Source: Granulicella pectinivorans (lineage in GTDB: Bacteria > Acidobacteriota > Terriglobia > Terriglobales > Acidobacteriaceae). Taken from it: a stretch of DNA of 32,000 nt. This document shows positions 7,997 to 32,000 of the stretch, in pieces; the stretch's first letter is position 1; every line of letters begins with the position of its first letter. The position numbers and the translations under genes are program-made. Below the pieces are notes generated by a model. It was not told the origin of the DNA. It saw only the letters and a list, made by a program, of their open reading frames with translations, and searched no databases. The stretch is taken from NCBI RefSeq assembly GCF_900114625.1, contig NZ_FOZL01000001.1, forward strand, positions 2,236,272 to 2,268,271. The letters run 5' to 3'.

Positions 7997-9058
7997 TCAA
8001 GTTACTTTTGGGGCAGTCCTGCCCCCACTCCCCGAAAACCGCAGCTCCCGCACGCTCCGCTCCGCGCGCAAACCCTGTGAAAGCGCCAGCACCGTCCCCG
8101 GCTTCGACGCCACCGTCGCATCCACCCGAAATCCACACAACGCCAGCAGCCGGTCCGTCTCATCGAACGAGAGCCGAGCTCCGGCCTGCCGCGCGGCCGC
8201 CCTTAAAACCCTGCGCCGCGTCGCCCCATCCATCGTCTTCAACCGCTCCACCTCGATCGCCACCCCGGCCTCACCCGGAGCCGTCCCCACGGCCCGCCCG
8301 CCCCCGCGCACCGGCTTCCCTGGCAACAAGACCTGCGGCAACAAACGTCCCAGGTCCGCGGTCCACTTCGCCTCTTCCTCGCGAGCCAGCTCCGCCAGAT
8401 TCGCCAGCGTCCGGTCCAGCGAAGGATTCTCCTCCCGCAGCATCGGAAGCACATGATGCCGCAGCCGGTTCCGCGTATACGCCGGGTCCACGTTGCTCGC
8501 ATCCTCGCGCCAATCCTGCCCCGTCTTCCCCAGCCACGCCTCGACCATCGCCCGCGTTGTCCCCAGCAGGGGCCGCACGATCTTCCCCTTCGCCAGCGAC
8601 ACCACCGGATGCACTCCGCTCAGCCCCTCGGTCCACGCTCCACGCAGCAGTTTCATCAGCACCGTCTCGGCTTGGTCGTCCAGCGTGTGCGCGGTGCAAA
8701 TCACATCCGCCTTGCCGTCGCTCAAATACGCGGAAAACACCCCATACCGCAGCGTCCGGGCCCCTTCTTCGACGGTCTCCCCCGTCCGCGCCACATGTCC
8801 CGGCGTATCCACCGGGGACACCTCCAGAGGAACCCCAAGCCGCTCACACAGCGCCTGAACAAACGCCGCATCCTCCGCGGCCTCGGCCCTCAGCCCATGA
8901 TTCACATGCACCGCCGCCAGCCCGATGCCAAGCGCATTCCGGGGCAGGGAATTGGCCGCATGCAGCCCCGTCAACAGAGCCACGGAGTCCGCCCCGCCCG
9001 AAACCGCCACACAAACCCTCGTCCCCGGAACCAGATACGTACGATCGAAAACCAACAT
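7997..9058 (-). CDS. tilS: tRNA(Ile)-lysidine synthetase
   Basis: 353 aa with the PP-loop VAVSGGADSVAL near the N-terminus. It lies upstream of ftsH, a conserved neighbourhood. Confidence 0.85.
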   Translation of the reverse strand: MLVFDRTYLVPGTRVCVAVSGGADSVALLTGLHAANSLPRNALGIGLAAVHVNHGLRAEAAEDAAFVQALCERLGVPLEVSPVDTPGHVARTGETVEEGARTLRYGVFSAYLSDGKADVICTAHTLDDQAETVLMKLLRGAWTEGLSGVHPVVSLAKGKIVRPLLGTTRAMVEAWLGKTGQDWREDASNVDPAYTRNRLRHHVLPMLREENPSLDRTLANLAELAREEEAKWTADLGRLLPQVLLPGKPVRGGGRAVGTAPGEAGVAIEVERLKTMDGATRRRVLRAAARQAGARLSFDETDRLLALCGFRVDATVASKPGTVLALSQGLRAERSVRELRFSGSGGRTAPKVT

Positions 9059-9115
9059 GACCTCATCTTAGAACCCGGTCCTGCTGCACGGGGCCGCTGC
9101 CCACGCATCGCGCTC

Positions 9116-10258
9116 TTAGACCCCACCGCTCAAATGCGATCGAAGCTCCTCCGGATGATGGCAATGCGCCATCGCCATCTCCCGTGAGATCCGCCCCGCC
9201 AGCACCATCTCCGCAAGAGACTGGTCCATCGTCACCATCCCCTCGCGGCTCCCCGTCGAGAGCTGCGAGCGAATCTGGTGATCCTGCCCCGTCCGGATCA
9301 GATTCCGGATCGCGTGCGTCGCGACCATCACCTCCACCGCCGGATACACCCCCGTCTTGCCCGCCGCCGGAACCAGTTGCTGCGCTACCACCGCCAGCAG
9401 CGCCAGGGAAAGCTGCTGCCGGATCTGCGACTGACTGTTGCCGGAGAAGCTGTCCAGCAAGCGCGACATGGTCTGCGCCGCATCGTTGGTATGCAGCGAC
9501 GACAAGACCAGATGGCCTGTCTCCGCTGCCGTCAAAGCCGCCGCCATCGTCTCCGTGTCCCTCATCTCGCCAATCAGGATCAGATCCGGATTCTGTCGCA
9601 GCACCGCCCGCACCGCCTGTCCGAAGCTGGGCGTATCCCGCCCCACCTCAATCTGCTCCACAATGGAATTCTTGTTTCCATGCTGGTACTCGATCGGGTC
9701 TTCGATCGTAAGGATGTGGTCCCGCCGCCGCGTGTTCACCCGGTCGACCATCGCTGCCATCGTCGAAGTCTTGCCGCTGCCTGTAGGTCCCGTCACCAGA
9801 ATGAGCCCCTGCTTGCGCTCCATCAGGCGCGCCAGCACCGGGGGCAGATGCAGCGATTCCAGCGTCGGCACCTGCATCGAAAGCAGACGAATGCTCGCCG
9901 CCAGGGTTCCCCGCTGATAGTGCAGATTCGAGCGAAACCTCCCAGTCGTCCCCTGCACAAAGCAGAAGTCCACCGACCTGTCCCGCTCCAACTCTTGCGC
10001 CTGAGCCGCCGAGAGCAGAGGGAGAAGCATCCCCCGCAGTTCCTCCGTGGCAAGCGCCTTGTCGGAGGCCACCGTGAGCGACCCATCGATCCGCAACGTC
10101 ACTGGCGATCCCGCCACCAGCAGAATGTCCGTGGCGCGCCGCTCGGCCGCAAGCTTCAGCAGCGCCGTCAGCGAGCCACTCCGCTCCTTCTTCGCCTTCG
10201 GCTGCACCGCATTCAGCTCATACACCAACTGCGACAGATCGTTCTCATACCCCGCCAT
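9116..10258 (-). CDS. pilT: Type IV pilus retraction (twitching motility) ATPase, PilT family
   Basis: 380 aa with Walker A LVTGPTGSGKTST, ILIGEMRD, and the LVLSSLHTNDA His-box typical of PilT/PilU. Confidence 0.85.
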   Translation of the reverse strand: MAGYENDLSQLVYELNAVQPKAKKERSGSLTALLKLAAERRATDILLVAGSPVTLRIDGSLTVASDKALATEELRGMLLPLLSAAQAQELERDRSVDFCFVQGTTGRFRSNLHYQRGTLAASIRLLSMQVPTLESLHLPPVLARLMERKQGLILVTGPTGSGKTSTMAAMVDRVNTRRRDHILTIEDPIEYQHGNKNSIVEQIEVGRDTPSFGQAVRAVLRQNPDLILIGEMRDTETMAAALTAAETGHLVLSSLHTNDAAQTMSRLLDSFSGNSQSQIRQQLSLALLAVVAQQLVPAAGKTGVYPAVEVMVATHAIRNLIRTGQDHQIRSQLSTGSREGMVTMDQSLAEMVLAGRISREMAMAHCHHPEELRSHLSGGV

Positions 10259-15949: not shown

Positions 15950-16024
15950 GGGCGCATAACTCAGCGGTAGAGTGCCACCTTCACACGGTGGAAGTCGTAG
16001 GTTCGAATCCTGCTGTGCCCACCA
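15950..16024 (+). tRNA. tRNA-Val, anticodon CAC, with encoded CCA
   Basis: Hand-folded cloverleaf: acceptor GGGCGCA/TGTGCCC (one G-U), D stem ACTC/GAGT, anticodon stem CCACC/GGTGG with loop TTCACAC, 5-nt variable loop, T arm GTAGG-TTCGAAT-CCTGC, discriminator A, then CCA. Total 75 nt. Confidence 0.9.
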
Positions 16025-16090
16025 TCAAATCAACAACTTAGCGGTGAGAAACAGCCGATTCGGGGCCAAGCGAAGGTCCAGAAGGGGCCA

Positions 16091-17290
16091 CTAAGCTGAA
16101 ATGGCCAATTCTGCCTTTGCGGAATGCAGTCCCAACAGCGAACTGATGCGGCCTTGCGCTACCCGTTTGTCGTTGTCGATTGCCTGGGCATAGACACCCA
16201 AGGTCATCGCCGGAGATGCGTGACGCATGAGTTCCTGAGCCGTCTTGACGGTTTCCCCGTTGGCCAGCAACCACGTTGCGGTTGTTCTCCTGAACGTATG
16301 CCATCCGATACGCTTTAGTATTCCAGCTTCGCGCGCGGCGGGCTGAATCACTTTTTGCAGCACCGTGGATGGCCAGTAGGGTTTCGCGCCCAGGTCGTAC
16401 GGCGATGCGAAAACCCAATCTCCAGGTTTGATGTACGGGGTTTTCTCACGCCAGGACTGTAACGCATGGACGAGAGCAGGCTCCAGCGGAATGGGTCGCT
16501 TAGACGTTTCCGTCTTCGGCTCCCCTGCTATTTGATCGACCAAGGAGCGGCGAATTTGAATCTTGCCGTTCTCAAAGTCAACATCCTCCCACCTTAGACC
16601 GACAAGCTCGCCGCGCCGCAAACCGGTGACGGCTGCCACGACGACCATTGTTCGGGCGTAGTCAGGGAGCAGGCTGAGCAATCTGCCCACTTCCTCCGGC
16701 GTCAGGATATCCGGGGTCTCGCGACGCTTCGCGCTTTGCCTCACCTCTCGGATCGGATTGCGTGTAGCCCACCCGTATCGCAATGCGTGTTGATAGACGA
16801 CACTGAAGACAGCCTTCGTTTTGGACTTGGTGCCATCTGCTTTGTCCAGACCCTCAAGCCAAGCCTCTACACGGAACGCCTTCACGTCTCCAATGCGCTC
16901 GGCTCCCCATCTCGGCAAAATGTAGTCGTCAAGATGCTGACGGTACGTTTCCCGTGTCCTGGGCGTTTTGCCGCGTCCGTCGCAAAGCTCCTTCTCTACG
17001 TAATGCCCAACAACTTCGCGGATGGTCATTGGAATTGTGCTGACGGCTTCGGCGTTGATGTCCAAACGAAGCGCGTCAACAGCCTTACGCGCCGCCGTCT
17101 CCGTCTTGTACTCCTGCACGGTGCCGATGATGCGCTTACGCCTGACGCTCTGCCCATTACCGGATGGCTCGCGCCACCGGTACGTCCAGACATCCGGCCC
17201 GCTGCTTCTAGATTCGGTTGTCAAATAGCCGCGTTGGTATCGCTCTCTGGAGAGCTTGAGGGTTGGAAGTGATGTGAGAGCGTTTGTCAT
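16091..17290 (-). CDS. int: Tyrosine-type site-specific integrase (phage/P4-like family)
   Basis: 399 aa with a catalytic-domain pattern: ...TGLRRGELVGLRWEDVDF... (Arg box), ...GWHTFRRTTATWLLANG... (H-x-x-R), ...LMRHASPAMTLGVYAQ (His and the Tyr nucleophile). The stop is 66 nt from the tRNA. Confidence 0.9.
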   Translation of the reverse strand: MTNALTSLPTLKLSRERYQRGYLTTESRSSGPDVWTYRWREPSGNGQSVRRKRIIGTVQEYKTETAARKAVDALRLDINAEAVSTIPMTIREVVGHYVEKELCDGRGKTPRTRETYRQHLDDYILPRWGAERIGDVKAFRVEAWLEGLDKADGTKSKTKAVFSVVYQHALRYGWATRNPIREVRQSAKRRETPDILTPEEVGRLLSLLPDYARTMVVVAAVTGLRRGELVGLRWEDVDFENGKIQIRRSLVDQIAGEPKTETSKRPIPLEPALVHALQSWREKTPYIKPGDWVFASPYDLGAKPYWPSTVLQKVIQPAAREAGILKRIGWHTFRRTTATWLLANGETVKTAQELMRHASPAMTLGVYAQAIDNDKRVAQGRISSLLGLHSAKAELAISA

Positions 17291-18465: not shown

Positions 18466-20319
18466 CTACTCCTCCGGCTCTTCGAGCGCCGGAGACAGCG
18501 GAGCAGCCTGAACATTCTTCCCCGCTTGTTTCCACAACGTCAGCGCCGTATGCCCTGCCTTCGGATTGAACAGCAGCTTATCCGCGATGGCAGATACCGG
18601 AGCCTTCGCAAGTTCGCCTGTATGGAAAGGCAACTTGCCCACCCATTCGGCCAGCCCGCTACCGGTCTCTGGGGTGGCAAGAGCGCCCAACACGTCGTTG
18701 TAATTTTTCAGGCCATCAGATCCGAGCAGCTTCGCGAACGCTCCGGCACCAAACTTGTTGTCGAAGTACGCGGGGAGCTTATTCAGAGCCGTACGGTTGA
18801 TAGAAGCCGTTTCCGCGCCGAAGCTACTGCCGTCTCCGGCACCCTGCAACATCGGGCGTATCCGATTCGCGAGCCACTGATAACGAATTCCCTGGGAGTA
18901 GGTGCGGTTCGCTGCATCCAGTTCTCCAGGCTTCACGACATCGGCGTGCTTATTGAGGAAGGCATCCATCTCGCGCTGGTACTCCGGCAGGTTCGCCTTT
19001 GCAGTAGCCTTATCCGTCTGGCTCGATACGCGGCTCTTGAGGGTGCTCTTCGCGTCGGTGATCTGGTCCTGCAACTCGGTGAAGAGCTTAGGCCGTGGTG
19101 GGACATCTGGAGTCGGGAGCGGCTTATCATCCGCTCCGTAAAGGGTGGGCTGTTTTTCCGCATCCCCGTACTTCTTGTCCCAGGCGGATACCTCTGGCTC
19201 GGCTGCGTCGTCCAGGATGCTATAGGTGTGGGATGCCTCTTTCTTGAGCAGACTCGCGATGTCATCGACAGAGGTCAGCGAAGAGGGTATTCCTGCGGTC
19301 GCCGGGGGCGGGTTCTCCCCACGGACTTTCCGAAGTTCCTTCACGGCATCCAAGGCAGACTGCACGAAGTTCGATTGCGCGGCCTTTCGGGCCGCTGGCG
19401 CTACGACATCATTCACGAAACCCTTCGCGCCCTGCTCAGTCGCGACGGATGACGCCAAGCGGGATGATACGGACTGGGTGGGCAGTTGCGGATTGTTGGA
19501 CGCGACCGGCACATCCTCTCCCGCGATCTTTGCGGAGGACGGCTTGGCGGTGTCTACAGCGCCCTCAGCGGCTTCGCCAAGCGAACTGATAGCCTTACCT
19601 ACCCCGAACGTCAGGAGCGGCCCCAGGATGTCACCGGCGACGGCCCGGTAGTTCTGCGCGTGCAGGTCTTCATCCAGGTTCGATCCAATCTGACGAATAG
19701 CGGGACCCATGAGGGGAATGACCCCGGCAGCATGGGAGTCAAGCGTCCCGGCAAGATCGCCAACGACACCGGATGCGCTGCCCTTGGCAGCGTCGGCCTG
19801 CACGCGGTCCTTGAGGTCGTTGTAGGATTTTGCAAGTCCTTTCACGCTACCCCCGGCTGCACGATCCGCTTTGTATGCGGCAGCGACCTCGTGAACGGGT
19901 TGCATGATGATCGCCTTCGCAGCTTGGACTATAGGATGGTCAGCGGTGAAGGCCTGACCGGTGATGATGTCGGTCGCCAGACTGGTAGCTGCCTTCCAGT
20001 CACCGGCCTTCGCGGTCTCGATCATCTGGTGGTACAAGTCGACGGGGCGCTGCACGGCGTACTTCGCGGACTGCGTTCCGAGGTCTACGATGCCCTTGAG
20101 GCCGGACGTTTCATAGGCGCGGTTTATAAGACCATGCTGCTCGGGCTGAGAGACGGGAGCAGAGTCAAAGACCATGCCGCCGTCGGGTGCCGCGCTAGGT
20201 GATGGCGAAGGCTTGGCTGGTGCAGACGATACCGGGGTTGGAGACGATACAGGAGACGAGTCGAAGACCATTCCTTGTCCGGCTTGCTGGTCCATGTCAG
20301 GTTGATTTGTGTCGAGCAT
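18466..20319 (-). CDS. Large hypothetical protein (617 aa), last gene of the island operon
   Basis: A long ORF with normal coding composition. Its start is coupled to the upstream stop (TAATG at 20317-20321). The N-terminus carries two copies of GMVFDS(S/A)PVS(S/Q)P separated by a Pro/Ser/Ala linker. I recognise no family. Confidence 0.8.
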   Translation of the reverse strand: MLDTNQPDMDQQAGQGMVFDSSPVSSPTPVSSAPAKPSPSPSAAPDGGMVFDSAPVSQPEQHGLINRAYETSGLKGIVDLGTQSAKYAVQRPVDLYHQMIETAKAGDWKAATSLATDIITGQAFTADHPIVQAAKAIIMQPVHEVAAAYKADRAAGGSVKGLAKSYNDLKDRVQADAAKGSASGVVGDLAGTLDSHAAGVIPLMGPAIRQIGSNLDEDLHAQNYRAVAGDILGPLLTFGVGKAISSLGEAAEGAVDTAKPSSAKIAGEDVPVASNNPQLPTQSVSSRLASSVATEQGAKGFVNDVVAPAARKAAQSNFVQSALDAVKELRKVRGENPPPATAGIPSSLTSVDDIASLLKKEASHTYSILDDAAEPEVSAWDKKYGDAEKQPTLYGADDKPLPTPDVPPRPKLFTELQDQITDAKSTLKSRVSSQTDKATAKANLPEYQREMDAFLNKHADVVKPGELDAANRTYSQGIRYQWLANRIRPMLQGAGDGSSFGAETASINRTALNKLPAYFDNKFGAGAFAKLLGSDGLKNYNDVLGALATPETGSGLAEWVGKLPFHTGELAKAPVSAIADKLLFNPKAGHTALTLWKQAGKNVQAAPLSPALEEPEE

Positions 20320-22469
20320 TAGAACTTCACCACTTTCCCATCTGCCGTGCGGTAGCCGAGGATAACGCCGGTCTTCGGATCACGTCCAGGCGTTGCGCCT
20401 ACAGGCACAACACGATCAGGTTGCCCGCTTCCTTGCTGAGGCTGAGACTGGAGACTCGACGCGTTCTGCTGTTGCTGTCTGAAGCTCGCCACGGTCGTAA
20501 GCTGATCTTCATTGGCGTAACGGCCTGCAACATCCTTCAGGCTATCCATCGCGCCCGCGAATTGGTCATTATTCATGCCAGGGAAGATCAGGCTGCCGGA
20601 CTTCTTGAGAATCTCGCTTGAGAATCGGCCTGTGTGCATTTTGGTCACTGCCGACTGTAAAAGGCTCACATTGTCGAGCATCTTCTGGGCCGCCTCGGTG
20701 CCGATGCCGAACGGTGCGAATGCCTTCGCAGAGTTCCCTGACAGAGGGCCGATGAGTCCGGGATTTCTCGCAATCTGTGCCTGAAGATCAGAGCTGATCG
20801 CGAGCACCTGACGGGCCGTGTCTGCGGTCTGTCGCTCCTGGGCAGTAGGTTTGTAGAGCGCTTGCTGATTCTGCGGAACGACGTTCCCACGCGGGTCTAC
20901 CAGCATGGAGTCAGGTGCGTTCTGTAACGTCAGCTTCTCCCCGCTGATCGGGTTGACGCCGGTCTTCATCATTGCCTCTCGGTCAGCGCCGGTCGCAATG
21001 GCATGGGCGCGGGCTTCCGCAGTCGCTTTGGTTATGCTTTCACTTTGCGAGATACGGACGAAGTTGGATGCCGCGCTGAGCTGATCCTTTGAGAATTTCT
21101 GGGGCGCGGCTAAGACGGCCTGGGCCTTCGCCTCGGAGTCGATGATGCTGAACTGCTCGGCACTCTTCTGGTTGGCCGCGAGCTGATCGTGTGCCGCCTC
21201 TAGAACTGACCACCCACCGAACACGGACGCAACGGCGTCAACGTATTTGGCGTCAGGGTTCGGCTGTATCTGACCGGTCTTCGGATCACGCTTCGCTTGG
21301 CCCATCGCCTGAAGTGCAGCGAAGGGGTCTTGGAGATTGGCCGCGTCATGCGAGACGTACGTCTGAAAGCGCTGCATCGCGGTATTCACACCGGGCTTCG
21401 AGAAGTCGATGGACTGAGGAACCTTCGATGCGTACTGGGTACCATCGAGCACGTTACTTAGATCGTGAAGACGCTGAGCTGCCAAATAGTGCGAGGCAAG
21501 CTGCTCATTCGCGTTCACCTTCATCCGCAGCGGGATCGTGAGACCTCCACCGACTTTGGTTCCCTTTGGAAAGCCAGGGACGCCGCCGTCTGCGTAGCGG
21601 TTCCAATCGTCCTGAGTGAGTGCGACCGGAGCGCCGGGGTCCTTGATGATGAGATGAGTTGCCTCCCACCGTTTCGAGCCGTCGGGGTTCGTGATCTCAA
21701 CGCGACCGGCAACGGGACCAAGCTGATCGGTCGGCGATAGCTTCCCGGTCTTCAATGAATCAAGCAACTCCGCTTGGGTCATCGGCGTACCACCGTTGTC
21801 TAGGAGGTCTGGGCTAACGTCCAGAACGCCCGAAGCCCTGTTAATGTCGGTGAGCTTATCGAGCGCGTCCGCACCCCTTGCCTCGGCCTCGCTGGTATTC
21901 AAAATCCCGCGAGAATTGGCTTCGTAGATGGACGCGCGTCTGGCGAGCTGCTGGGACTGGTTTTGAAAATCTTGCTGGGCCTGTTGTTCCTGCTTCTGCT
22001 GCGCTTGCTGTTGCGCCTGCGATACCTGCTGATAACCAGCGGCGGCGGCACGACCCGTAGCTCCGGGGCCGGTGACGGCGAGACCGCCGAGAGCACCCGT
22101 GACAGCCTCCATCGCAATCGCGAGGCCGATGTCGCGGCTGGAAAGGGGGACTTTCGTGCGCGTGGTTGCGCCGGTTGTAGCGTCGATGCTCGTTGTAAAG
22201 CGAGGACCGCCAGCTAGGGTTTCGGCAACAGAGCGAAGAACGCTCGCCTTTTGTATTGCAGGATGCGCTTGGGCCGCAGGCACAGCGGCGGCATTGCTGA
22301 CCACCGCTGCATTGTCCTGTTCGTTTGCGGGCTGAGGCTGGGTAGGCTGCTGCACCGCAACAGTTGCGACAGACTGGTCTTGGGTAGTCTGCTGAGGCTG
22401 CGTATTATCGTCGCCTGTGTCGGGGACGCTGGAGACCGGCTGCTGGTCGTCGGGTGTATCGAATGTCAT
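20319..22469 (-). CDS. Large hypothetical protein (716 aa), Gln-rich
   Basis: I prefer ATG 22469 (AGGAAA upstream; MTFDTPDDQQPVSSVP...). The 51 codons upstream in ORF 20319-22622 are Arg/Pro/Ser-rich and span hairpins. It has a disordered Q/T/P-rich N-terminus, a Gly/Ala-rich hydrophobic stretch (IGLAIAMEAVTGALGGLAVTG) and a poly-Q coil (QAQQQAQQKQEQQAQQDFQNQSQQ). I recognise no family. Confidence 0.8.
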   Translation of the reverse strand: MTFDTPDDQQPVSSVPDTGDDNTQPQQTTQDQSVATVAVQQPTQPQPANEQDNAAVVSNAAAVPAAQAHPAIQKASVLRSVAETLAGGPRFTTSIDATTGATTRTKVPLSSRDIGLAIAMEAVTGALGGLAVTGPGATGRAAAAGYQQVSQAQQQAQQKQEQQAQQDFQNQSQQLARRASIYEANSRGILNTSEAEARGADALDKLTDINRASGVLDVSPDLLDNGGTPMTQAELLDSLKTGKLSPTDQLGPVAGRVEITNPDGSKRWEATHLIIKDPGAPVALTQDDWNRYADGGVPGFPKGTKVGGGLTIPLRMKVNANEQLASHYLAAQRLHDLSNVLDGTQYASKVPQSIDFSKPGVNTAMQRFQTYVSHDAANLQDPFAALQAMGQAKRDPKTGQIQPNPDAKYVDAVASVFGGWSVLEAAHDQLAANQKSAEQFSIIDSEAKAQAVLAAPQKFSKDQLSAASNFVRISQSESITKATAEARAHAIATGADREAMMKTGVNPISGEKLTLQNAPDSMLVDPRGNVVPQNQQALYKPTAQERQTADTARQVLAISSDLQAQIARNPGLIGPLSGNSAKAFAPFGIGTEAAQKMLDNVSLLQSAVTKMHTGRFSSEILKKSGSLIFPGMNNDQFAGAMDSLKDVAGRYANEDQLTTVASFRQQQQNASSLQSQPQQGSGQPDRVVPVGATPGRDPKTGVILGYRTADGKVVKF

Positions 22470-22661
22470 AGTTTCCTGAAGGAGTGGGGACCGCCTTGGA
22501 TGGCTTCGCGGGCCTCTGCCCAGCGGTCCCCTTTCGTCGGCAGACGAAGGGCAGAATCGAATTTTGATGCGGTCCCGCCGGTAGAGGAGAAGGCCGGAGC
22601 AGTCGGCATGGCGGGACCGCAAAGCGGCGCGGAAGAAGAAGGAAGACCGCGCCGAATTGGG

Positions 22662-23705
22662 TTATCGTGTATCGGACATCGCGGTGAATAACTCAGCGAC
22701 CGTCGGAGCAATTGAGAAGGTCCGTCGGTAATCTTCGGAAGACATGCGGTCAACCTCCCAATTTGAGAAGTCGCGCATCTCGCCGGTGAGTTGATCGCGG
22801 CCTCGATAGACCTTCGGGCCTGATGGCGTAGTGGCGTTTGCCCGTTCTGGTGGGACGGCGAGGTTCACAGGCTCGGGCCGCTCTGCTGGCGGCTGAAGGG
22901 CTGTTTTTTGCTTCAACAACCCAAGGTCACGAAGGCGTACGAATGCCGCACGGATCGTTTCAACGTCGGCAATGAGCACGCCGTTCCTGCGGAGATACCC
23001 CAGAATGACATCGGCATTTTCTAAGGTTCGATAGGCCGCGTATTCAGGCTCACTCGCGAACTGCGCGGCTGCCTTTGCCGTGAACGCCTCGGCGTCCTTC
23101 GTCGGCATGGAGGCCGCACGCATGGCGTAGCTGACCACGAGCTTAGGGTCTGCATCCGCTTGAATCCAGTCAGCCCAGTACGCCTTCTGTTTCTCGCCAC
23201 GTTCGTGTAGCTCTGCTTCTCGCTCGGCCTGCTCTTGAGCGGCTTTGCGTTCTGCTTCGCGTCGTGGACGTTCGGCCTCTCTCTGGGCAGCTTCCTCAGC
23301 TTCACGACGCTCGCGGGCCGCGATGACTTCACGGGCGGTCATCGGGCGGGGTGATGGTGTAGGGGCGTACTTTGTGGGACGCTCCCAACCATCGGTTTCA
23401 GCATCCATGCGTGCGGCTGACGCCTGAAGTTGGGCAGCCTCAAGATCAGCTCGACGCTGGGCGGCGATGCTCTCGGATTCGTTGAGGCGTTGACGTTGCT
23501 CTGTCAGTTTGTTGTGGGTGGACGACATGCACTTGGCCGCGCCGGACATAAGGCGGTCGTGGCTTTCCGTCGTCGAACTGCCGCACGCACACGTCACCTC
23601 GTAGCGAGGCCGTGGATGTCGGGCAACCATGTCGCCAACCTTCAGCGTTCCTACGGTGCGACCCTCAAGATTGATGAGGCCGGGCATTACGCGTGTCGTG
23701 GACAT
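22662..23705 (-). CDS. Hypothetical protein (347 aa) with an N-terminal Cys-cluster (phage-like L.G..vG.L.V...C.CG...C) and an E/R/A-rich coiled coil
   Basis: The ATG at 23705 has GGAGAA 9 nt upstream. An alternative ATG at 23687 would give a TAATG junction with the upstream gene. Residues include ...INLEGRTVGTLKVGDMV...YEVTCACGSSTTESHDRLMSGAAKC..., followed by REAEEAAQREAERPRREAERKAAQEQAEREAE. Confidence 0.7.
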   Translation of the reverse strand: MSTTRVMPGLINLEGRTVGTLKVGDMVARHPRPRYEVTCACGSSTTESHDRLMSGAAKCMSSTHNKLTEQRQRLNESESIAAQRRADLEAAQLQASAARMDAETDGWERPTKYAPTPSPRPMTAREVIAARERREAEEAAQREAERPRREAERKAAQEQAEREAELHERGEKQKAYWADWIQADADPKLVVSYAMRAASMPTKDAEAFTAKAAAQFASEPEYAAYRTLENADVILGYLRRNGVLIADVETIRAAFVRLRDLGLLKQKTALQPPAERPEPVNLAVPPERANATTPSGPKVYRGRDQLTGEMRDFSNWEVDRMSSEDYRRTFSIAPTVAELFTAMSDTR

Positions 23706-23989
23706 AAGTCAGTTCTCCAATGTTTCCCGTCCTGGATTGCAGCCGTAAGCGTGTGCCGAGTCGCAATGAACTCGTCCAGAAGGGTCTTCGGGTCTTCGAT
23801 TGGAAAGCCTGGGCCGTTGTCGTCGCGGTGGTAAGCTCTCGCAATCTCAGCACATCTTCCTTCCACATCGTCAATGAGGAAGGTCGCTCCCTTCGGCTGC
23901 TCGATGAACGTCGCGATGTGAACGGCTGGTCCATACACGTAACGCATGATGGCGCAGACACCCTGATTCCGCGTGCGGTAAAGGCTCAT
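23687..23989 (-). CDS. Hypothetical protein (100 aa)
   Basis: It is linked to both neighbouring genes (ATGA overlap at 23986-23989; its stop overlaps the next gene). I see no motif. Confidence 0.55.
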   Translation of the reverse strand: MSLYRTRNQGVCAIMRYVYGPAVHIATFIEQPKGATFLIDDVEGRCAEIARAYHRDDNGPGFPIEDPKTLLDEFIATRHTLTAAIQDGKHWRTDLCPRHA

Positions 23990-24396
23990 GGTTTCCTCCG
24001 GTGGGCATAGCGATCACGCAGCCAGTAGCGGGAGGGTGCTAAATTTCGGGCGATGTATAAGCGACCGCAGCGAAGAAAAAGCTCTTTCTTCGGAGCAGCG
24101 ACAACCGGTTCGCCAAACGCCAGTTGAAACCAATTTCGTTGCAGGTCCGGTCTACCCTCAAGAGCTTTCTCGGTCGCCTTCTCAATGTCCACGGCGTAGC
24201 CTACGAGGTCGAAGGTGAGCTTCTGGGGTTGGTTGGTTGGTTCGGGGTCGATTTGACTCGCGATGATCGGCGAGAGGCTTCTTATGCGGACGTACTCGCA
24301 AATGACTGCCATGCACGCGTTTTCATAACGCTCAAGCAGGTCACGTTTTGACATGGACGCAGGACGCGCCGGGTCATTGGGTTGTAATGCTTCCAC
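23986..24396 (-). CDS. Hypothetical protein (~136 aa from GTG 24396, or 122 aa from ATG 24354)
   Basis: GTG 24396 is preceded by AGGAGA. The further 83 codons upstream in the ORF-track model (to 24645) are Arg-rich and look untranslated. Confidence 0.55.
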   Translation of the reverse strand: MEALQPNDPARPASMSKRDLLERYENACMAVICEYVRIRSLSPIIASQIDPEPTNQPQKLTFDLVGYAVDIEKATEKALEGRPDLQRNWFQLAFGEPVVAAPKKELFLRCGRLYIARNLAPSRYWLRDRYAHRRKP

Positions 24397-24671
24397 TTCT
24401 CTCCTGATTGGATTTTTGCTGCTACAGCCCAGGGAACACAACGGGCGCGATGCTGCGACCGTCTGATGTGGTCGATTCGTGGCATTGCGAGCGTGGATGA
24501 TATGGAACTGCCCCGGCACGACGACGGAAACGTACCGTGTACGTTCGGCCTTTTGAAGCTCTGTCGTTGGTCGTCGGATACCGATAAGAAGGCCGTAATC
24601 AGGGCGGCGGGTGATTCCCGCTCTGTGCCCCGATTGATGCCTCACACATACATAGAGCGGCGACGATTTTT

Positions 24672-25679
24672 CTAGGCTGCCAAGAGCGTTTGTTCACAGG
24701 TCTCCGCGTCGTAAACCTCGTCCGCACGAAAGGGACCGGCACGGCGTAACTCGCGTTCAAGATCAGCGTAGGTCCAGGGCAGGTCGCGGATGACAATCGG
24801 ATTGTGATATTGCTCAAGGTCGATGGCCCCTGACCACATTCTCACCTTGCCTTCATCCCCAAGCCCCTCTTTGTACGCGTCGTTTGCGTGCTCATCGCCG
24901 GGACCAAGGACGATGGGACGTGGTGAGCATTTTCCCTGCTCTCGCAAATATGCAAGCTCAGATTCGGTTTCTTCGATTCCGTCAGTTGATGCGGGTTTTG
25001 GGGCGTCGCCCTTCTTTAGAAGCCGGATTCGTTCCGTCTTCCAGGCGCGTGCCCGCCAGTACGCCCTCCAATGGAGTTCGGCTCTAAGGCCTTCCGTATC
25101 TGCAAACTTTGCCGCATGGTCCGCTACATACATCCACATCTCTGAGAACAACTGGTCTTCCACATCGTCAATGCAGCCTTCCAGGTCACGACAGTCCACC
25201 AGTACGCGCCGGATACCGGACCTGACTGCTGCGGCATGAACCTTGATCCAAGTTGCCAATGCTTCGATGCCCTCAGTTTCTCGGCGGGCAATAACCTGCG
25301 TCCACACCTGGAGTGCGTCGGCATCATTCACGCAGCCTGCGAACTCCGGCAGCCGAAGGAACAGCATGGTGTCAAGAACATCGCGTTCACGTCCACTCAG
25401 TATCTGACGCAGTTTTACGACGAGTTGAGCTTGCCGCGATGCCCAGGCAACAGCCTCAGCTTGGAACAGCCTGGCGTATGCAACACCTTTCGGATAGCGA
25501 TGGTCCTGAAGGCGCTCGAAGAGCTGTCCAACGATGCGCTGCACATCGAACACTGTTGTTCCAGATACTCCAAGAATCGCTTCCTTCAGCGCGGCTTGTA
25601 CCTTCTCCGCATGGAACCTTTCTCGCGCCCGCTTGAGGTCTTTGTCGTATTTCTTCTTTTTCTTGATTTCGTCCGTCAT
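24672..25679 (-). CDS. Hypothetical protein (335 aa)
   Basis: A long ORF with coding-like composition, starting 16 nt after the upstream stop. The segment DDVEDQLFSEMWMYVADHAAKF...LHWRAYWRARAWKTERIR faintly resembles sigma-70 region 2, but I cannot support that call. Confidence 0.7.
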   Translation of the reverse strand: MTDEIKKKKKYDKDLKRARERFHAEKVQAALKEAILGVSGTTVFDVQRIVGQLFERLQDHRYPKGVAYARLFQAEAVAWASRQAQLVVKLRQILSGRERDVLDTMLFLRLPEFAGCVNDADALQVWTQVIARRETEGIEALATWIKVHAAAVRSGIRRVLVDCRDLEGCIDDVEDQLFSEMWMYVADHAAKFADTEGLRAELHWRAYWRARAWKTERIRLLKKGDAPKPASTDGIEETESELAYLREQGKCSPRPIVLGPGDEHANDAYKEGLGDEGKVRMWSGAIDLEQYHNPIVIRDLPWTYADLERELRRAGPFRADEVYDAETCEQTLLAA

Positions 25680-25695
25680 TCCGTCCCATTCTGGT

Positions 25696-26136
25696 CTACT
25701 GCCGCGTAGCGTTATGCTCAGCGAGGATCGCGTTTACATCGCTGATGGTCGTCTCGGTCGTAACGTTCCCTGAGCGGAGACCCCCTTCGGCTATGTCGCG
25801 ATAGTGGTTTGGTGTGGATGCATAGGTGGCTTCCAGATGCGAGGTCACCCCCTCGGAGAGGGGTTGTTCGTGGTTCATGTTTCCCTTTCTGAGAGCAGGT
25901 GCTCTCATCTCTTCGTCAAGCAGGTTGAACAGCAGTTTTGTTACATACCGATACGCTCGGTCCGAATCTGTACCTGTACGGTGGAACTTCGCGGCGGCCT
26001 TCATGATCGCTTTCTCAAGAAGCTCGTCATCGAATCTGAGACACCATCTGATGAACTGTGCCAGCTCCGGCGGCGGGACATCTGAAACCGCTTTCCAAAG
26101 AGCTTGAAACTTTGTAGCTCTATCCGATACAAGCAT
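25696..26136 (-). CDS. Hypothetical protein (146 aa)
   Basis: The ATG at 26136 is preceded by AGGAGA, and the gene overlaps the upstream stop by 17 nt. The ORF-track start at 26292 would overlap the Rep-like gene by 173 nt. Confidence 0.6.
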   Translation of the reverse strand: MLVSDRATKFQALWKAVSDVPPPELAQFIRWCLRFDDELLEKAIMKAAAKFHRTGTDSDRAYRYVTKLLFNLLDEEMRAPALRKGNMNHEQPLSEGVTSHLEATYASTPNHYRDIAEGGLRSGNVTTETTISDVNAILAEHNATRQ

Positions 26137-27022
26137 TGGTGATCTCCTGTAGTCCGTGCTGAGTGCCTGCGCCCATGTAAGCCCGAATCGCGGTGAGATC
26201 GAACTCCGGCTCCTTCCAAAGCTGAAAGCTCCGGAGAGCACATAGCTTTGCTGAGTCACCTGAGCGGGAACACGCGAAACATTTCCAGGCATCGGCTGTG
26301 TCGGTCGCGGTTACTCTGAAGGTTCGGTCGGGGTTTAGACATAACGGGCAAGTGAGCCGCATTCCGCTGTCTGCGGTGAATCCGTGGACATAATCGAGCT
26401 GAGGCTTCAGCGCGAGACGATATCGAGTCAGCACATCCAGTTCGTTGACCCGGTTGCGGAAGAACCAGCCGAGATCGTTGAGGGATGCACCTGACGCTAC
26501 GTCGAGCAGTTGGATCAATGTTCCGTGAGTCCATCGGGAACCTGCTTCCCTCAGCGACTTCGTTTTGAGGATGCCTTTATTCGCGAGTTCTGCGAGGGCT
26601 GCCCCCACTGCTTGACGGCTGACTCGCGCCACTTTCGCCAGCTTATCTCGACGACCCTCCCACGAGAAATACGGTGCTCGCTGGTGCTTAGCCGAGGCAT
26701 ACAACGCAATGCAGACTCTCAGCTCGGCCAACGACAATTCATCCCACGGTAAGTGTGTCGGAATCTCCGCAAGCTTGTTCGCGGGGATGGCGGTAGCTTC
26801 GGGAGTGCCTTTGTCATCCAGGGATACAAGCTCCCTCTGGGCCAACTCCGCTAGTGTCTCGCGCCGCCTGCGGTGGGTGTACGGTGTTCCGCGTTGCAGG
26901 CTATTCAGCGCGAATGCGCCGCCATACAGACGCAGCAACTCCAGCACCGAAGCACGGGAATGCAAGTGCAAGATATCCGTGCTCAACTTCAAGTAGGGGA
27001 TGCCTAGTTCAAAGAGTTTCAT
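26120..27022 (-). CDS. Replication-initiator-like protein: winged-helix HTH plus a C-terminal CHC2-type (primase-like) zinc finger. It has no catalytic primase or helicase domain.
   Basis: The wHTH-like segment is LAKVARVSRQAVGAALAELANKGIL. The C-terminal CPLCLNPDRTFRVTATDTADAWKCFACSRSGDSAKL parallels the DnaG/P4 zf-CHC2 pattern CPFH..ktPSf.v......y.CFgCg..GD. It is the first gene of the operon, downstream of the iterons. Confidence 0.7.
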   Translation of the reverse strand: MKLFELGIPYLKLSTDILHLHSRASVLELLRLYGGAFALNSLQRGTPYTHRRRRETLAELAQRELVSLDDKGTPEATAIPANKLAEIPTHLPWDELSLAELRVCIALYASAKHQRAPYFSWEGRRDKLAKVARVSRQAVGAALAELANKGILKTKSLREAGSRWTHGTLIQLLDVASGASLNDLGWFFRNRVNELDVLTRYRLALKPQLDYVHGFTADSGMRLTCPLCLNPDRTFRVTATDTADAWKCFACSRSGDSAKLCALRSFQLWKEPEFDLTAIRAYMGAGTQHGLQEITNACIG

Positions 27023-29091: not shown

Positions 29092-29112
29092 TTATTGTAC
29101 GGAGGCAGGACG

Positions 29113-29679
29113 ATGACAGCAGCAAAAGGCGGGCAGAGGGTTGGCTATATCAGAGTGAGCAGCGCGGACCAGAACACGGCACGGCAGCTAGATGGCGTTG
29201 ACTTAGACGAGCGGTTCGAGGATAAAGCGTCCGGCGCAAGCACTAACCGGCCCCAGCTCCAGGCTGCACTCAGGCATGTCCGCAAGGGTGATGTGCTGGT
29301 TGTCCACTCAATGGACCGCCTTGCCCGTTCCCTCGCCGATCTGCTGGCGCTCGTCAAAGAACTGACCGGGCGTGGCGTGACTGTAGAGTTCGTGAAGGAG
29401 GCCCAGACGTTCACCGGCGACGACACTCCCATCGCGAAGATGATGCTCGGCGTGATGGGGAGTGCTGCTGAGTTCGAGCGCGACATGATTCGACAGCGCC
29501 AGCGTGAGGGAATCACAGCGGCGAAGGCACGTGGCAAGCACTTGGGCCGCGCCGCGATACTGAAACCCGCCCAAGTGAAGGAGTTACGGAACCGTGTGGC
29601 TGCCGGTGAGGATAAGGCCACCATCGCCCAAGCGTTCGGCATCAGTCGCGCTAGCGTCTACAACTACGCGGCGTCCTGA
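29113..29679 (+). CDS. Small serine recombinase (resolvase/invertase family)
   Basis: The ATG at 29113 has GGAGG 7 nt upstream. The catalytic region VGYIRVSSADQNTARQ carries the Ser nucleophile, followed by DVLVVHSMDRLARS, the E-helix AEFERDMIRQRQREGI, and a C-terminal HTH TIAQAFGISRASVYNY. Confidence 0.9.
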   Translation: MTAAKGGQRVGYIRVSSADQNTARQLDGVDLDERFEDKASGASTNRPQLQAALRHVRKGDVLVVHSMDRLARSLADLLALVKELTGRGVTVEFVKEAQTFTGDDTPIAKMMLGVMGSAAEFERDMIRQRQREGITAAKARGKHLGRAAILKPAQVKELRNRVAAGEDKATIAQAFGISRASVYNYAAS

Positions 29680-29874: not shown

Positions 29875-30102
29875 CTACTTCTGGCACCGGGCGAAGATAT
29901 ACGTTTGATAGAACTCGCATTGACTCAGAACCGTCGCAGGCAAGCCTTCGCATAGCAGATACACGGTCAGGTCGTACCCGGACAGACCTTCAATCCGTCG
30001 GTCGTCATAGTCGAGAACGTAAGAATCTTGCGCATTTGGGTCAACGGATTTTTTGACCTCATATCCCCAGTATTCAAAGACATTCTCTTCGGCGTGCTTC
30101 AT
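29875..30102 (-). CDS. Hypothetical small acidic protein (75 aa)
   Basis: The ORF lies in low-G+C DNA and has a plausible composition (MKHAEENVFEYWGYEVKK...). It has no SD and no motif I recognise. Confidence 0.35.
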   Translation of the reverse strand: MKHAEENVFEYWGYEVKKSVDPNAQDSYVLDYDDRRIEGLSGYDLTVYLLCEGLPATVLSQCEFYQTYIFARCQK

Positions 30103-30175: not shown

Positions 30176-30741
30176 ATGCGCAAGATCATCGGTGTTCTAT
30201 TTCCTTGGCGGAAGACGTTCAGGCGTCTTGAGCTTGAGAAGCGATGGTGGCATCGGTTGGTGGTCGTAGTGCTTTTCTTGGCTTTGACTCCCGCGTTTTT
30301 CTGCTGCTGGGCTATCGGAAACGAGGCAGCCCCGCCTGTTCACCCGTCTGGTGACGATATTCAATACTGGGAGCTACTGACACCACCACCGAATGGCGAC
30401 ACATTGGAGCAGGCGGTCTCTCCGATGACCGACCCACCAGACCCGAGATGGATCGGTCAGGGAAAGATAGCGGCACCACTCAAAGACATATTTGATATCT
30501 TGGCAGCGTCCGACCGAAGGCTAACCTGCTCAAAACGGTACAGATGCCTAATGGAAAGACAATCACCTTTCCCGGCGCAACCTCTGACGACACCATCAAA
30601 GCCGAGTGGAACCACAAACTGAAGATCGCGACCGCCGAAGCAGCGTCGTTGGGTTTTGGGACAGCTTGCTTGGTGACATTGATTCTCAGTTATCTGCTTC
30701 AAGCGGGATACAGAGCTGCGCAGTACCATCTACGGCTCTAA
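30176..30741 (+). pseudogene. Membrane protein gene that appears split by a frameshift near 30496-30510, or two overlapping ORFs (30176-30622 and 30544-30741)
   Basis: ORF1 (GGAGAG 3 nt before ATG 30176) has a TM segment (LVVVVLFLALTPAFFCCWAIG), but its last ~35 codons look out of frame (..RRLTCSKRYRCLMERQSPFPAQP..). The -1 frame is open from 30496 and reads a protein-like sequence: YLGSVRPKANLLKTVQMPNGKTITFPGATSDDTIKAEWNHKLKIATAEAASLGFGTACLVTLILSYLL (second TM). Confidence 0.4.
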
Positions 30742-30760: not shown

Positions 30761-30909
30761 GCTGCAAAGGTGTATGACTAGAACTTCCCAGGCATACGAG
30801 CGCCTTCGACCTACGCTTATTTATGGCTTGGACAATGGGGGGGGAGCACGCTCCAGGTCGATTCCAGTCAACGGCGTATTCGATGCGCTTGCTTTTTCTA
30901 TTGACGCGT

Positions 30910-31872
30910 TTATTTCGACGGGTTTCTGCCTGTTGCCGCCGAGAGTCGTTTAGTCAACAACTCTCTCAATTGGGAAAGGTTCTCGTACTCAGGGCAGTTG
31001 CGGTAAGCAAGATCGAAGTGAACATAGGTGTCTTTTTTTCGATAGAGCATCGGTGCCTTCCCGATGGCGTGCGCATAACCTATTTCGTAGTAGACACTAG
31101 GCCGCTCATGAGTCAGGTCTGCAAACAGATGTTCAGAATCCTGTATCTGCTGGATGATGCGCTCTGTTATCCCGTCAGAGTGTTCGAGGTCATCGGCCCG
31201 AACAGCGGTTATGCCGAAGGTCTTGAACACATCGACTACTGTGTCACGGACGTCCTTCAATTCTGGAAGCTGAGGGTTGATGCGCATCATGATAAAAGCT
31301 GTGCCGGGCCGGTACGTCTTGAGGTTCGTTGATGTAGCGGTACCAGCCGTCGCGGTCTCATTGCGGGCACCGAGCACTTGCAATAACTCGAACGTGCCGT
31401 CCACGGCTTCGATGAATTCGCTACGGCACACATCTACTGGGACATCGGTTTCCGACTGCCCCGGCGGGTCTGACCCGATGTAGCTACCTTCATCGTGGTG
31501 GATGTACACGCCCCAGGAATTGAATTTACGGAGCCTCATAGACGCCGCTGCTCGTTTGGAACTTTGACCGAGTGCTATAAGGTCTGCTCTATCAACGAGC
31601 ACGGCCCGCTGTGCAACCGAGGCTATATCGGCCATGACCTGCCGAGCTTCGCCCCGAAGTTGCAAGCCTCTCTGTTTGTAGCCCTCAGAAAGAAGCGCCC
31701 AATAATCAGGGTCCGGCATCTGAGATTGTTGCCAACTCAAAAAGCTAACCTCTGGGGGCGCAATGGAGGCGTCCTTTAGAGCACGCTCAGCATGGGTAAG
31801 GAATTCGAGACCTTGATCTCTCAGGGTCGTCAATTTGGTTCTGAGCTGCATCACTGTTTCGTCGATTGCCAT
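30910..31872 (-). CDS. Two-domain protein: unknown N-terminal ~185 aa plus a C-terminal nucleoside 2-deoxyribosyltransferase-like / TIR-like Rossmannoid domain
   Basis: Residues ~188-310 read GTAFIMMRINPQLPELKDVRDTVVDVFKTFGITAVRADDLEHSDGITERIIQQIQDSEHLFADLTHERPSVYYEIGYAHAIGKAPMLY. This gives a beta1 hydrophobic strand, an ...aDlt...p.V.yEiGyAhA.GK block, and the conserved Glu (E263, codon 31084-31086) that is the catalytic nucleophile position in NDT-fold enzymes. Confidence 0.7.
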   Translation of the reverse strand: MAIDETVMQLRTKLTTLRDQGLEFLTHAERALKDASIAPPEVSFLSWQQSQMPDPDYWALLSEGYKQRGLQLRGEARQVMADIASVAQRAVLVDRADLIALGQSSKRAAASMRLRKFNSWGVYIHHDEGSYIGSDPPGQSETDVPVDVCRSEFIEAVDGTFELLQVLGARNETATAGTATSTNLKTYRPGTAFIMMRINPQLPELKDVRDTVVDVFKTFGITAVRADDLEHSDGITERIIQQIQDSEHLFADLTHERPSVYYEIGYAHAIGKAPMLYRKKDTYVHFDLAYRNCPEYENLSQLRELLTKRLSAATGRNPSK

Positions 31873-32000
31873 GTATGGGCAATAGCATACCTGATCGTGT
31901 GCTCCTGTTGTCCATTACGCCACGATTGGTCTTTGCCAAATTTCTAGACCTCCCAGGCGTGCCGCAAATGACTTTTTATCAATGGTTTGCAGATTTCTAT

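Follow-up and report, generated by a model that had tools for sequence, protein, structure and literature searches.

Enzyme domains related to nucleoside 2-deoxyribosyltransferases (NDT) and to TIR domains are known from several bacterial defence systems. The NDT-like effector of retron Ec86 depletes adenine derivatives (bioRxiv 10.1101/2023.08.16.553469), and ThsI, the effector of Thoeris type VIII, joins a CMP-hydrolase domain to tetratricopeptide repeats (TPR) (bioRxiv 10.64898/2025.12.03.692087). Swarozyc is a single-gene system consisting of a DUF4062 TIR-like NADase and an auxiliary domain; it is activated by the phage portal, which the auxiliary domain binds, and this domain is needed for defence (bioRxiv 10.64898/2026.05.01.722283). 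Here we analyse a gene at positions 30,910 to 31,872 of a 32,000-nucleotide stretch of the Granulicella pectinivorans genome (the whole stretch is referred to as the window), which encodes a protein of 320 amino acids (aa) with an NDT-like domain behind an N-terminal domain. We favour, with moderate confidence, the view that it is a self-contained, single-polypeptide defence protein of the abortive-infection type whose gene is part of the cargo of an integrative island. An earlier note, made from the sequence alone, had described an orphan protein with an NDT/TIR-like effector domain in low-G+C accessory DNA, with partner genes perhaps lying beyond position 32000. The open reading frame (ORF), its motifs, the fold, the catalytic glutamate and the mobile setting all withstood closer analysis; the orphan status and the partner past the end of the window did not.

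In the mechanism that we propose, the C-terminal domain would be an N-glycosidase that uses Glu263 as its nucleophile and cuts a nucleotide-type substrate between base and sugar, the candidates being a deoxynucleotide, ATP or another adenine nucleotide, and NAD+. The N-terminal helical-bundle/β-meander domain would autoinhibit the enzyme until an infection cue arrives, possibly a phage protein or a small molecule; activation would probably proceed via a change of oligomeric state. Depletion of the substrate would then halt phage replication or the infected cell, and this is the anti-phage phenotype that we infer.

The C-terminal domain was placed by structure and profile comparisons. When the model was compared with the Protein Data Bank (PDB) using Foldseek, the first ~40 matches were nearly all NDT or DNPH1/Rcl proteins with a probability of 1.00 and TM-scores, normalised to the target, of 0.55 to 0.77; the TIR domain of SARM1 was listed only from rank 43 down. 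TIR families (PF01582 and PF13676) were absent from the Pfam scan of the protein at E ≤ 10, and one family member is named "TIR domain-containing protein" by NCBI. The Pfam NDT family PF05014 matched residues 226 to 283 (E = 1.1e-4, 22.8 bits); the same label is precomputed for many homologues, and a remote plasmid relative passes with 33.9 bits. A single-sequence search of the PDB gave only chance matches to malate dehydrogenase (E about 0.15). The profile of the C-terminal domain, which for the PDB search was widened with remote plasmid and prophage relatives, matched the NDT of Trypanosoma brucei (E = 1e-4) and rat Rcl (E = 8e-4), as well as Leishmania NDT and human DNPH1.

The catalytic residues can be traced in the same alignments, and Glu263 lies where the earlier note had put it, at the position of the catalytic nucleophile. 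It was aligned on the Glu of "GTAFEVG" in T. brucei NDT and of "GVGYELG" in rat Rcl, and hhalign placed it on E104 of human DNPH1 (E = 1.4e-5), the residue that forms the glycosyl-enzyme intermediate. In the profile alignment, D252 coincided with the acidic residue that is conserved on the strand before. Eight positions of the catalytic loop (R257, P258, V260, Y261, Y262, E263, G265 and H268) are invariant in 30 aligned homologues, and ~20 residues around the catalytic site are invariant across phyla. Further invariant motifs are specific to the family: RAD227xxEH231, H285-F-D287 and N292-C-P-x-Y (RADxxEH, HFD and NCPEY). Given the Foldseek results, the profile matches and the alignment of E263 and D252, the domain belongs to the superfamily of NDT/DNPH1/TIR-like glycohydrolases, and its active site is intact. 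The nearest solved relatives, NDT and DNPH1, are metabolic enzymes (DNPH1 hydrolyses 5-hydroxymethyl-deoxyuridine monophosphate), and some sources label family members "nucleoside 2-deoxyribosyltransferase". Both points would suit an accessory enzyme of nucleotide metabolism, engaged in salvage or modified-base processing, with a regulatory N-terminal domain and no role in conflict. We regard this alternative as improbable in view of the distribution and neighbourhoods described below, and the enzymes on which the N-terminal domain is otherwise found (deaminase, GGDEF and a DUF4062 match under the cut-off) are typical of conflict systems.

PADLOC 2.0 had no matching model other than the generic PDLC00733 ("Effector", described as TIR). 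The window protein matched it with E = 1.2e-8, and all 30 aligned members did so (E from 7e-13 to 1e-8). The match is limited to the enzymatic domain (model positions 235 to 352 of 388, the C-terminal third of the model), and the N-terminal two thirds of PDLC00733 are unrelated to the N-terminal domain of the window protein. Remote relatives with only the C-terminal domain in common were seen on Bacillus mycoides plasmids (L084, 3422-4375), on a Bradyrhizobium plasmid (L086, 3674-4492) and as gp47 of Staphylococcus phage P630 (L085, 2881-3531). They keep the pattern R.D..EH / IT..I / DLT / VYYE.GYA / HFD, and their N-terminal regions are unrelated. For the 317-aa B. mycoides plasmid protein, annotated as NDT, a shared N-terminal domain was considered and rejected (hhalign probability 0.2%). 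The PHROG families matching these relatives (3634, 16139, 26406 and 10872) are all of unknown function. Because the remote relatives share the C-terminal domain only, the effector subfamily is broader than the family studied here.

The N-terminal domain is the new part of the protein. The earlier note had found this region unassignable, and it stayed so: it has no match in Pfam or NCBIfam (the latter gave the whole protein no family), and Foldseek searches of the PDB and BFVD returned only generic helical-bundle noise (E ≥ 0.065, TM < 0.5). Modelled alone with AlphaFold2 (AF2), the domain reached a predicted local distance difference test score (pLDDT) of 90.7 and a predicted TM-score (pTM) of 0.83. 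In this model, three long helices are combined with a four-strand β-meander (residues 115 to 143) and one more long helix. The β-meander bears two motifs, HHDEG and "DPPGQSE"; in the NDT-fused family H126 and D127 of the former are invariant and E128 nearly so. When 1.84 billion representatives were searched exhaustively with a profile of the domain, 377 clusters at 50% identity were retrieved, nearly all of them no longer than 335 aa and representing the same architecture or fragments thereof. Other enzymes take the place of the NDT-like domain in a few clusters: a dCMP/cytidine deaminase in three (Pfam E about 1e-15 to 5e-17), a GGDEF cyclase in one (E = 4.6e-33) and a weak DUF4062 match in one (E = 5.7e-4); a further cluster has an unassigned domain that is TIR-like by eye. 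HHDEG has lost its His in the deaminase fusions, where LNDED or LSDED is found instead and the D-E pair is kept. The gene for the GGDEF variant adjoins hsdS and a gene whose large product has weak matches to Piwi and faint Schlafen-like ones. Separately, P0025, a full-length homologue of 426 aa, carries an additional N-terminal DUF2513 domain (E = 1e-15), which hints at addition of modules at the N-terminus.

Since the same domain is fused to several nucleotide-acting enzymes, it is a portable module, and a role as sensor or regulator fits better than one as a second catalytic domain; the suggestion in the earlier note that this region is a separate sensor has thus gained ground. A bolder reading is possible, although we put it forward only tentatively: the N-terminal domain may be a new portable infection-sensing module that switches at least three, possibly four, enzyme heads (NDT-like, deaminase, GGDEF and, weakly, DUF4062), the present protein being the founder and dominant representative of a new single-gene anti-phage family. 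Its members occur in numerous bacterial phyla and in at least one archaeal metagenome-assembled genome (MAG).

The ORF behind this two-domain protein is real. In the ORF list, 320 codons run without interruption from the first ATG to the stop codon at 30910-30912; the closest homologues share the start point (MAIDE/MATDE), and conservation spans the full length in the 30 aligned homologues. The motifs TAFIMM, FADLT and RPSVYYEIGYAHAIGK, quoted in the earlier note, were found in the translation. The full-length AF2 model has a mean pLDDT of 84.9; the linker between the domains is the sole segment below 50, and it is variable in both length and sequence among the aligned homologues. In the annotation of the source genome, the gene call (P0003) has just 209 aa, starts at the internal Met112 and loses most of the conserved N-terminal domain, and short entries of the family are numerous in databases. 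Such entries could suggest that the window copy is a decaying remnant; however, this reading is effectively refuted, as the ORF has no frameshift or stop, all family-invariant residues are kept in both domains, and the short calls were traced to internal-start choices or frameshifted assemblies. Apparent stand-alone or split versions of the C-terminal domain were likewise explained by frameshifts or internal starts. The truncated calls, which occur in many genome annotations including that of the source genome, conceal the N-terminal domain.

The protein is not an orphan. A word-indexed protein search retrieved 656 homologues at E ≤ 1e-3, most of them 300 to 330 aa long and covering 95 to 100% of the query. 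A pattern scan of 185,579 species genomes (one genome per species) confirmed 204 loci. The phyla represented are Acidobacteriota, Nitrospirota, Pseudomonadota, Chloroflexota, Verrucomicrobiota, Planctomycetota, Bacillota and Latescibacterota, to which a Bathyarchaeota MAG is added; cultured bacteria with the gene include Vibrio parahaemolyticus, Pectobacterium, Agrobacterium, Sinorhizobium, Mesorhizobium, Massilia and Paraburkholderia. No description of the family or of its N-terminal domain was found in open-access literature searches. The distribution, patchy and of low frequency (~204 loci) over very distant phyla, speaks against an accessory metabolic enzyme. So do the locations, which are DNA of foreign composition, islands, plasmids and restriction-modification (R-M) loci, and the neighbourhoods, which are never conserved and never a salvage operon, even if housekeeping genes occur among some flanks.

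Full-length members were absent from 50,697 phage genomes and from plasmids, both of which held remote relatives of the C-terminal domain only, and viral contigs of IMG/VR yielded 3 loci in 2.9 million. This near-absence from phages argues against a function on the phage side. It also bears on the possibility that the enzyme serves mobile elements, either as an anti-defence factor that degrades immune signals derived from nucleotides or NAD, or as an addiction or stabilisation toxin of islands and conjugative elements. Several loci do lie on conjugative elements near relaxase or coupling-protein genes, or in integrase-bounded islands, and hydrolases of the NDT/TIR fold could in principle destroy nucleotide signals. 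However, besides the scarcity in viral genomes, no antitoxin-like partner is conserved, and the embedding in R-M operons and the ApeA, SIR2 and TIR neighbours are typical of defence genes; we therefore judge a service to mobile elements unlikely.

To define the neighbourhoods, ORFs within 6 kb on either side were clustered all against all for 83 loci (related tests covered 83 to 87 loci). No neighbour family was common to more than 9 of the 83, and the top one was a tyrosine integrase. A looser test of abutting co-directional ORFs of at least 40 aa, run at relaxed thresholds, clustered only hsdS (4 loci, in one clade) and pairs from sister genomes. When the window was compared with the contig of the closest relative, the gene alone was shared, at 72% nucleotide identity. 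Because there is no conserved neighbour and the gene alone is shared with its closest relative, the gene behaves as an independent unit of one gene, and a partner past position 32000, as the earlier note had envisaged, is unlikely.

These results weigh on the alternative that the protein acts as effector in a system of several genes, of signalling or retron type, together with a partner outside the window, such as a type II retron reverse transcriptase (RT) with its noncoding RNA (ncRNA), a Thoeris-like TIR sensor or a cyclase of a cyclic oligonucleotide-based antiphage signalling system (CBASS). Type II retrons and Thoeris type VIII do use NDT-superfamily domains as effectors (bioRxiv 10.1101/2023.08.16.553469; 10.64898/2025.12.03.692087), the PADLOC match is to the "Effector" model of a multi-gene system, and the window shows just 128 nucleotides upstream of the gene. 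TIR_2 was found in 2 of 148 sampled flanking genes, and an RVT_1 gene lies 3.4 kb off in one locus (L091). On the other side, neither RT nor cyclase nor TIR genes recur among the flanks, no neighbour family is conserved in the 83 to 87 loci, and the gene moves alone between contexts. Rfam gave no match (E ≤ 1) between positions 27000 and 32000, with the limit that retron ncRNAs are poorly covered by Rfam. The family is also without the TPR of ThsI, and its NDT-like domain is C-terminal, whereas that of the Ec86 effector lies in the N-lobe. Overall, we consider a multi-gene system very unlikely.

The homologues turned out not to be housekeeping genes in a fixed context; instead, their surroundings vary, and those that can be annotated are mobile or defence-related. 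In six loci (L021, L029, L034, L042, L043 and L052) the gene is embedded in a type I R-M operon in the order hsdM - unknown - gene - hsdS - hsdR, with an 11-nucleotide overlap into hsdS; this clade was found in Chloroflexota and Latescibacterota. In the closest homologue (L094) the order is ApeA - resolvase - gene. The Agrobacterium gene (L089) lies downstream of a C5-methyltransferase/Vsr/HNH cassette on a conjugative element, where HEPN and IS110 genes are found as well, and the Pectobacterium gene (L091) is on a conjugative element with SIR2, CAP12-TIR, FRG and RT genes. DUF4365, VspR and a helicase accompany the Vibrio gene (L087), ImmA/DUF4411 and an integrase fragment are seen at L002, and L001 is in a prophage-like region. 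Among the 148 immediate flanking genes, the recurrent ones are type I S subunits, N6-methyltransferase, Mrr, MmeI, TIR_2, FRG, mad genes and transposases. Genes for integrases and relaxases often lie nearby, the integrase being the most recurrent neighbour. As a side observation, the extra gene between hsdM and the family gene encodes ~290 to 390 aa without a Pfam match (L029, 7975-9135; L042, about 8945-9823) and may be a further embedded accessory or defence gene.

Several points weigh against a defence role, or limit how far it can be taken. The case is one of guilt by association: the defence contexts are qualitative cases from a sample of loci, some flanks are housekeeping genes (e.g., ThiC and glutamine synthetase), and the type I R-M embedding may go back to one ancestral event that spread horizontally. 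In the C-terminal domain, the window protein stays under the gathering threshold of PF05014 (22.8 versus 28.8 bits), and the E-values of the full-length Foldseek search are weak, from 5e-3 upward. The Tyr tied to 2'-deoxy specificity in NDT and DNPH1 sits in the β1 segment (PMC11204291). This segment did not align in the hhalign comparison with DNPH1, so that the Tyr-versus-Phe residue near the catalytic Glu, a clue to the substrate, is not assignable, and the substrate is not deducible from sequence. The enzyme fusions of the N-terminal domain are rare (~6 of the best 150 of the 377 representative clusters), and the DUF4062 assignment among them is under the Pfam cut-off. Finally, the packing of the two domains in the full-length model is uncertain (pTM 0.53).

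The features of the gene and of its surroundings are collected in Table 1.

Table 1. Location of the gene, its parts and the mobile-element features in the 32,000-nucleotide window
Feature	Position	Strand	Basis
Whole gene, two-domain protein of 320 aa	30910..31872	-	ORF list; conservation; AF2
N-terminal domain, residues 1-176, putative sensor/regulatory module	31345..31872	-	AF2, searches
HHDEG motif, residues 125-129, in the β-meander	31486..31500	-	Alignment, translation
Flexible inter-domain linker, residues ~173-184	31321..31356	-	pLDDT, alignment
C-terminal NDT/DNPH1-like α/β domain, residues 185-320 (~135 aa), putative N-glycosidase effector	30913..31320	-	Foldseek, profiles
Catalytic-loop motif RPSVYYEIGYAHA, residues 257-269; Glu263 codon 31084-31086	31066..31104	-	Alignment, translation
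Left boundary of the island: tRNA-Val 15950-16024 (+), then tyrosine integrase 16091-17290 (-)	15950..17290		ARAGORN; Pfam
Serine recombinase (resolvase), convergent with the gene	29095..29679	+	Pfam

An integrated element occupies the right half of the window; it starts at a tRNA-Val gene, which was identified by ARAGORN and is followed by a tyrosine integrase (Pfam Phage_integrase, E = 3e-26). No att repeat of the tRNA was found within the window; hence, the island should extend past position 32000. The G+C content is 0.52 to 0.53 at 30 to 32 kb versus 0.60 to 0.68 in the first 13 kb, and together with the nearby resolvase (Pfam Resolvase, E = 1.3e-38, plus HTH_7) it bears out the low-G+C accessory setting beside a recombinase that had been noted earlier. 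This resolvase is context and not a functional partner; the one on the contig of the closest homologue has 34% identity to it and the other orientation. A megablast search of plasmids with the 26 to 32 kb region gave no match.

The remaining genes of the island are poorly characterised by database matches. Between the integrase and the resolvase lie seven sizeable ORFs (18466-27022, minus strand) of 617, 767, 347, 219, 335, 198 and 300 aa, which had no Pfam or PADLOC match and only marginal PHROG matches. The 617-aa and 767-aa ORFs had no sequence relative in the PDB, and the latter had no tblastn match in phages; in the 300-aa ORF, a CxxC...CxxC zinc-ribbon motif resembles primase Zn fingers. 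Two small ORFs without a family match lie between the resolvase and the gene under study (30176-30622, plus strand; 29875-30102, minus strand). The former, of 148 aa, has a hydrophobic stretch that looks transmembrane; neither is conserved beside homologues, and both may be non-genes. A terminator-like hairpin (30873-30889, plus strand) is seen just past the stop codon of the studied gene, between the convergent ORFs, in a region where the count of such sites is at chance level. No sigma-70-like promoter was detected in the 128 nucleotides upstream of the gene.

Should the proposed function be confirmed, the gene would stand for a new family of single-gene defence systems, which occurs in at least 0.1% of species-representative genomes and in very distant phyla. 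A structurally unprecedented sensor domain would join the nucleotide-depleting immune effectors of NDT, TIR and deaminase types, and, because this domain is coupled to several enzyme heads, its trigger, once found, would account for a whole set of systems. The NDT-like head could reveal a new depletion chemistry, directed at deoxynucleoside monophosphates, modified phage nucleotides, ATP or NAD+.

How, then, does the protein compare with what has been described? With the superfamily of NDT, DNPH1 (Rcl) and CMP N-glycosidases, the C-terminal domain shares the α/β fold, the catalytic-Glu motif (V/G)(Y/G)(Y/F)E(I/L)G and the acidic residue on the preceding strand. However, these enzymes do not have the 176-aa N-terminal domain, and they are metabolic, whereas the window gene is accessory and mobile. 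The type II retron effectors (Ec86/Eco1 and RcaT of Sen2) are likewise NDT-like and have a catalytic Glu, and they are toxic and inactive until triggered by phage (bioRxiv 10.1101/2023.08.16.553469; PMC7736814), as is proposed for the window protein; like it, they are two-lobed and about 300 aa long. The differences are the order of the lobes, mentioned above, and the neighbours, as the family has no conserved RT and only the lone RT of L091. The Ec86 effector gave no detectable sequence match in the PDB sequence searches. ThsI is similar in having an NDT/CMP-hydrolase-superfamily domain, with a proposed action on nucleotide pools, that is coupled to a ligand-sensing domain; it differs in that the window protein has no TPR match and the family no conserved adjacent TIR gene. 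CBASS differs in that no cyclase is among the recurrent neighbours in the family-count summaries, and the multi-gene system behind PDLC00733 in that no cognate signalling gene is near the window gene.

The likeness to Swarozyc extends to the single gene, the glycohydrolase domain of the TIR/NDT superfamily with its catalytic Glu, the auxiliary domain and the defence-island contexts, and one rare relative of the N-terminal domain is even fused to a weak DUF4062-like domain. On the other hand, the window protein has no DUF4062 (PF13271) match in the Pfam scan, its domain order is reversed, with the enzyme at the C-terminus, and its auxiliary domain is a helical bundle with a β-meander and not the helix-turn-helix/winged-helix of Swarozyc. 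Thus, the protein would work like the retron, Thoeris VIII, CBASS and Swarozyc systems and appears to be a member of none of them, because it has no conserved RT neighbour and no Rfam match for an ncRNA, no conserved TIR partner and no TPR, no recurrent cyclase neighbour and no DUF4062 match, respectively. Its presumed effector chemistry and the logic of a sensor and an effector in a single gene have precedents; what is new is the putative sensor domain, together with the family.

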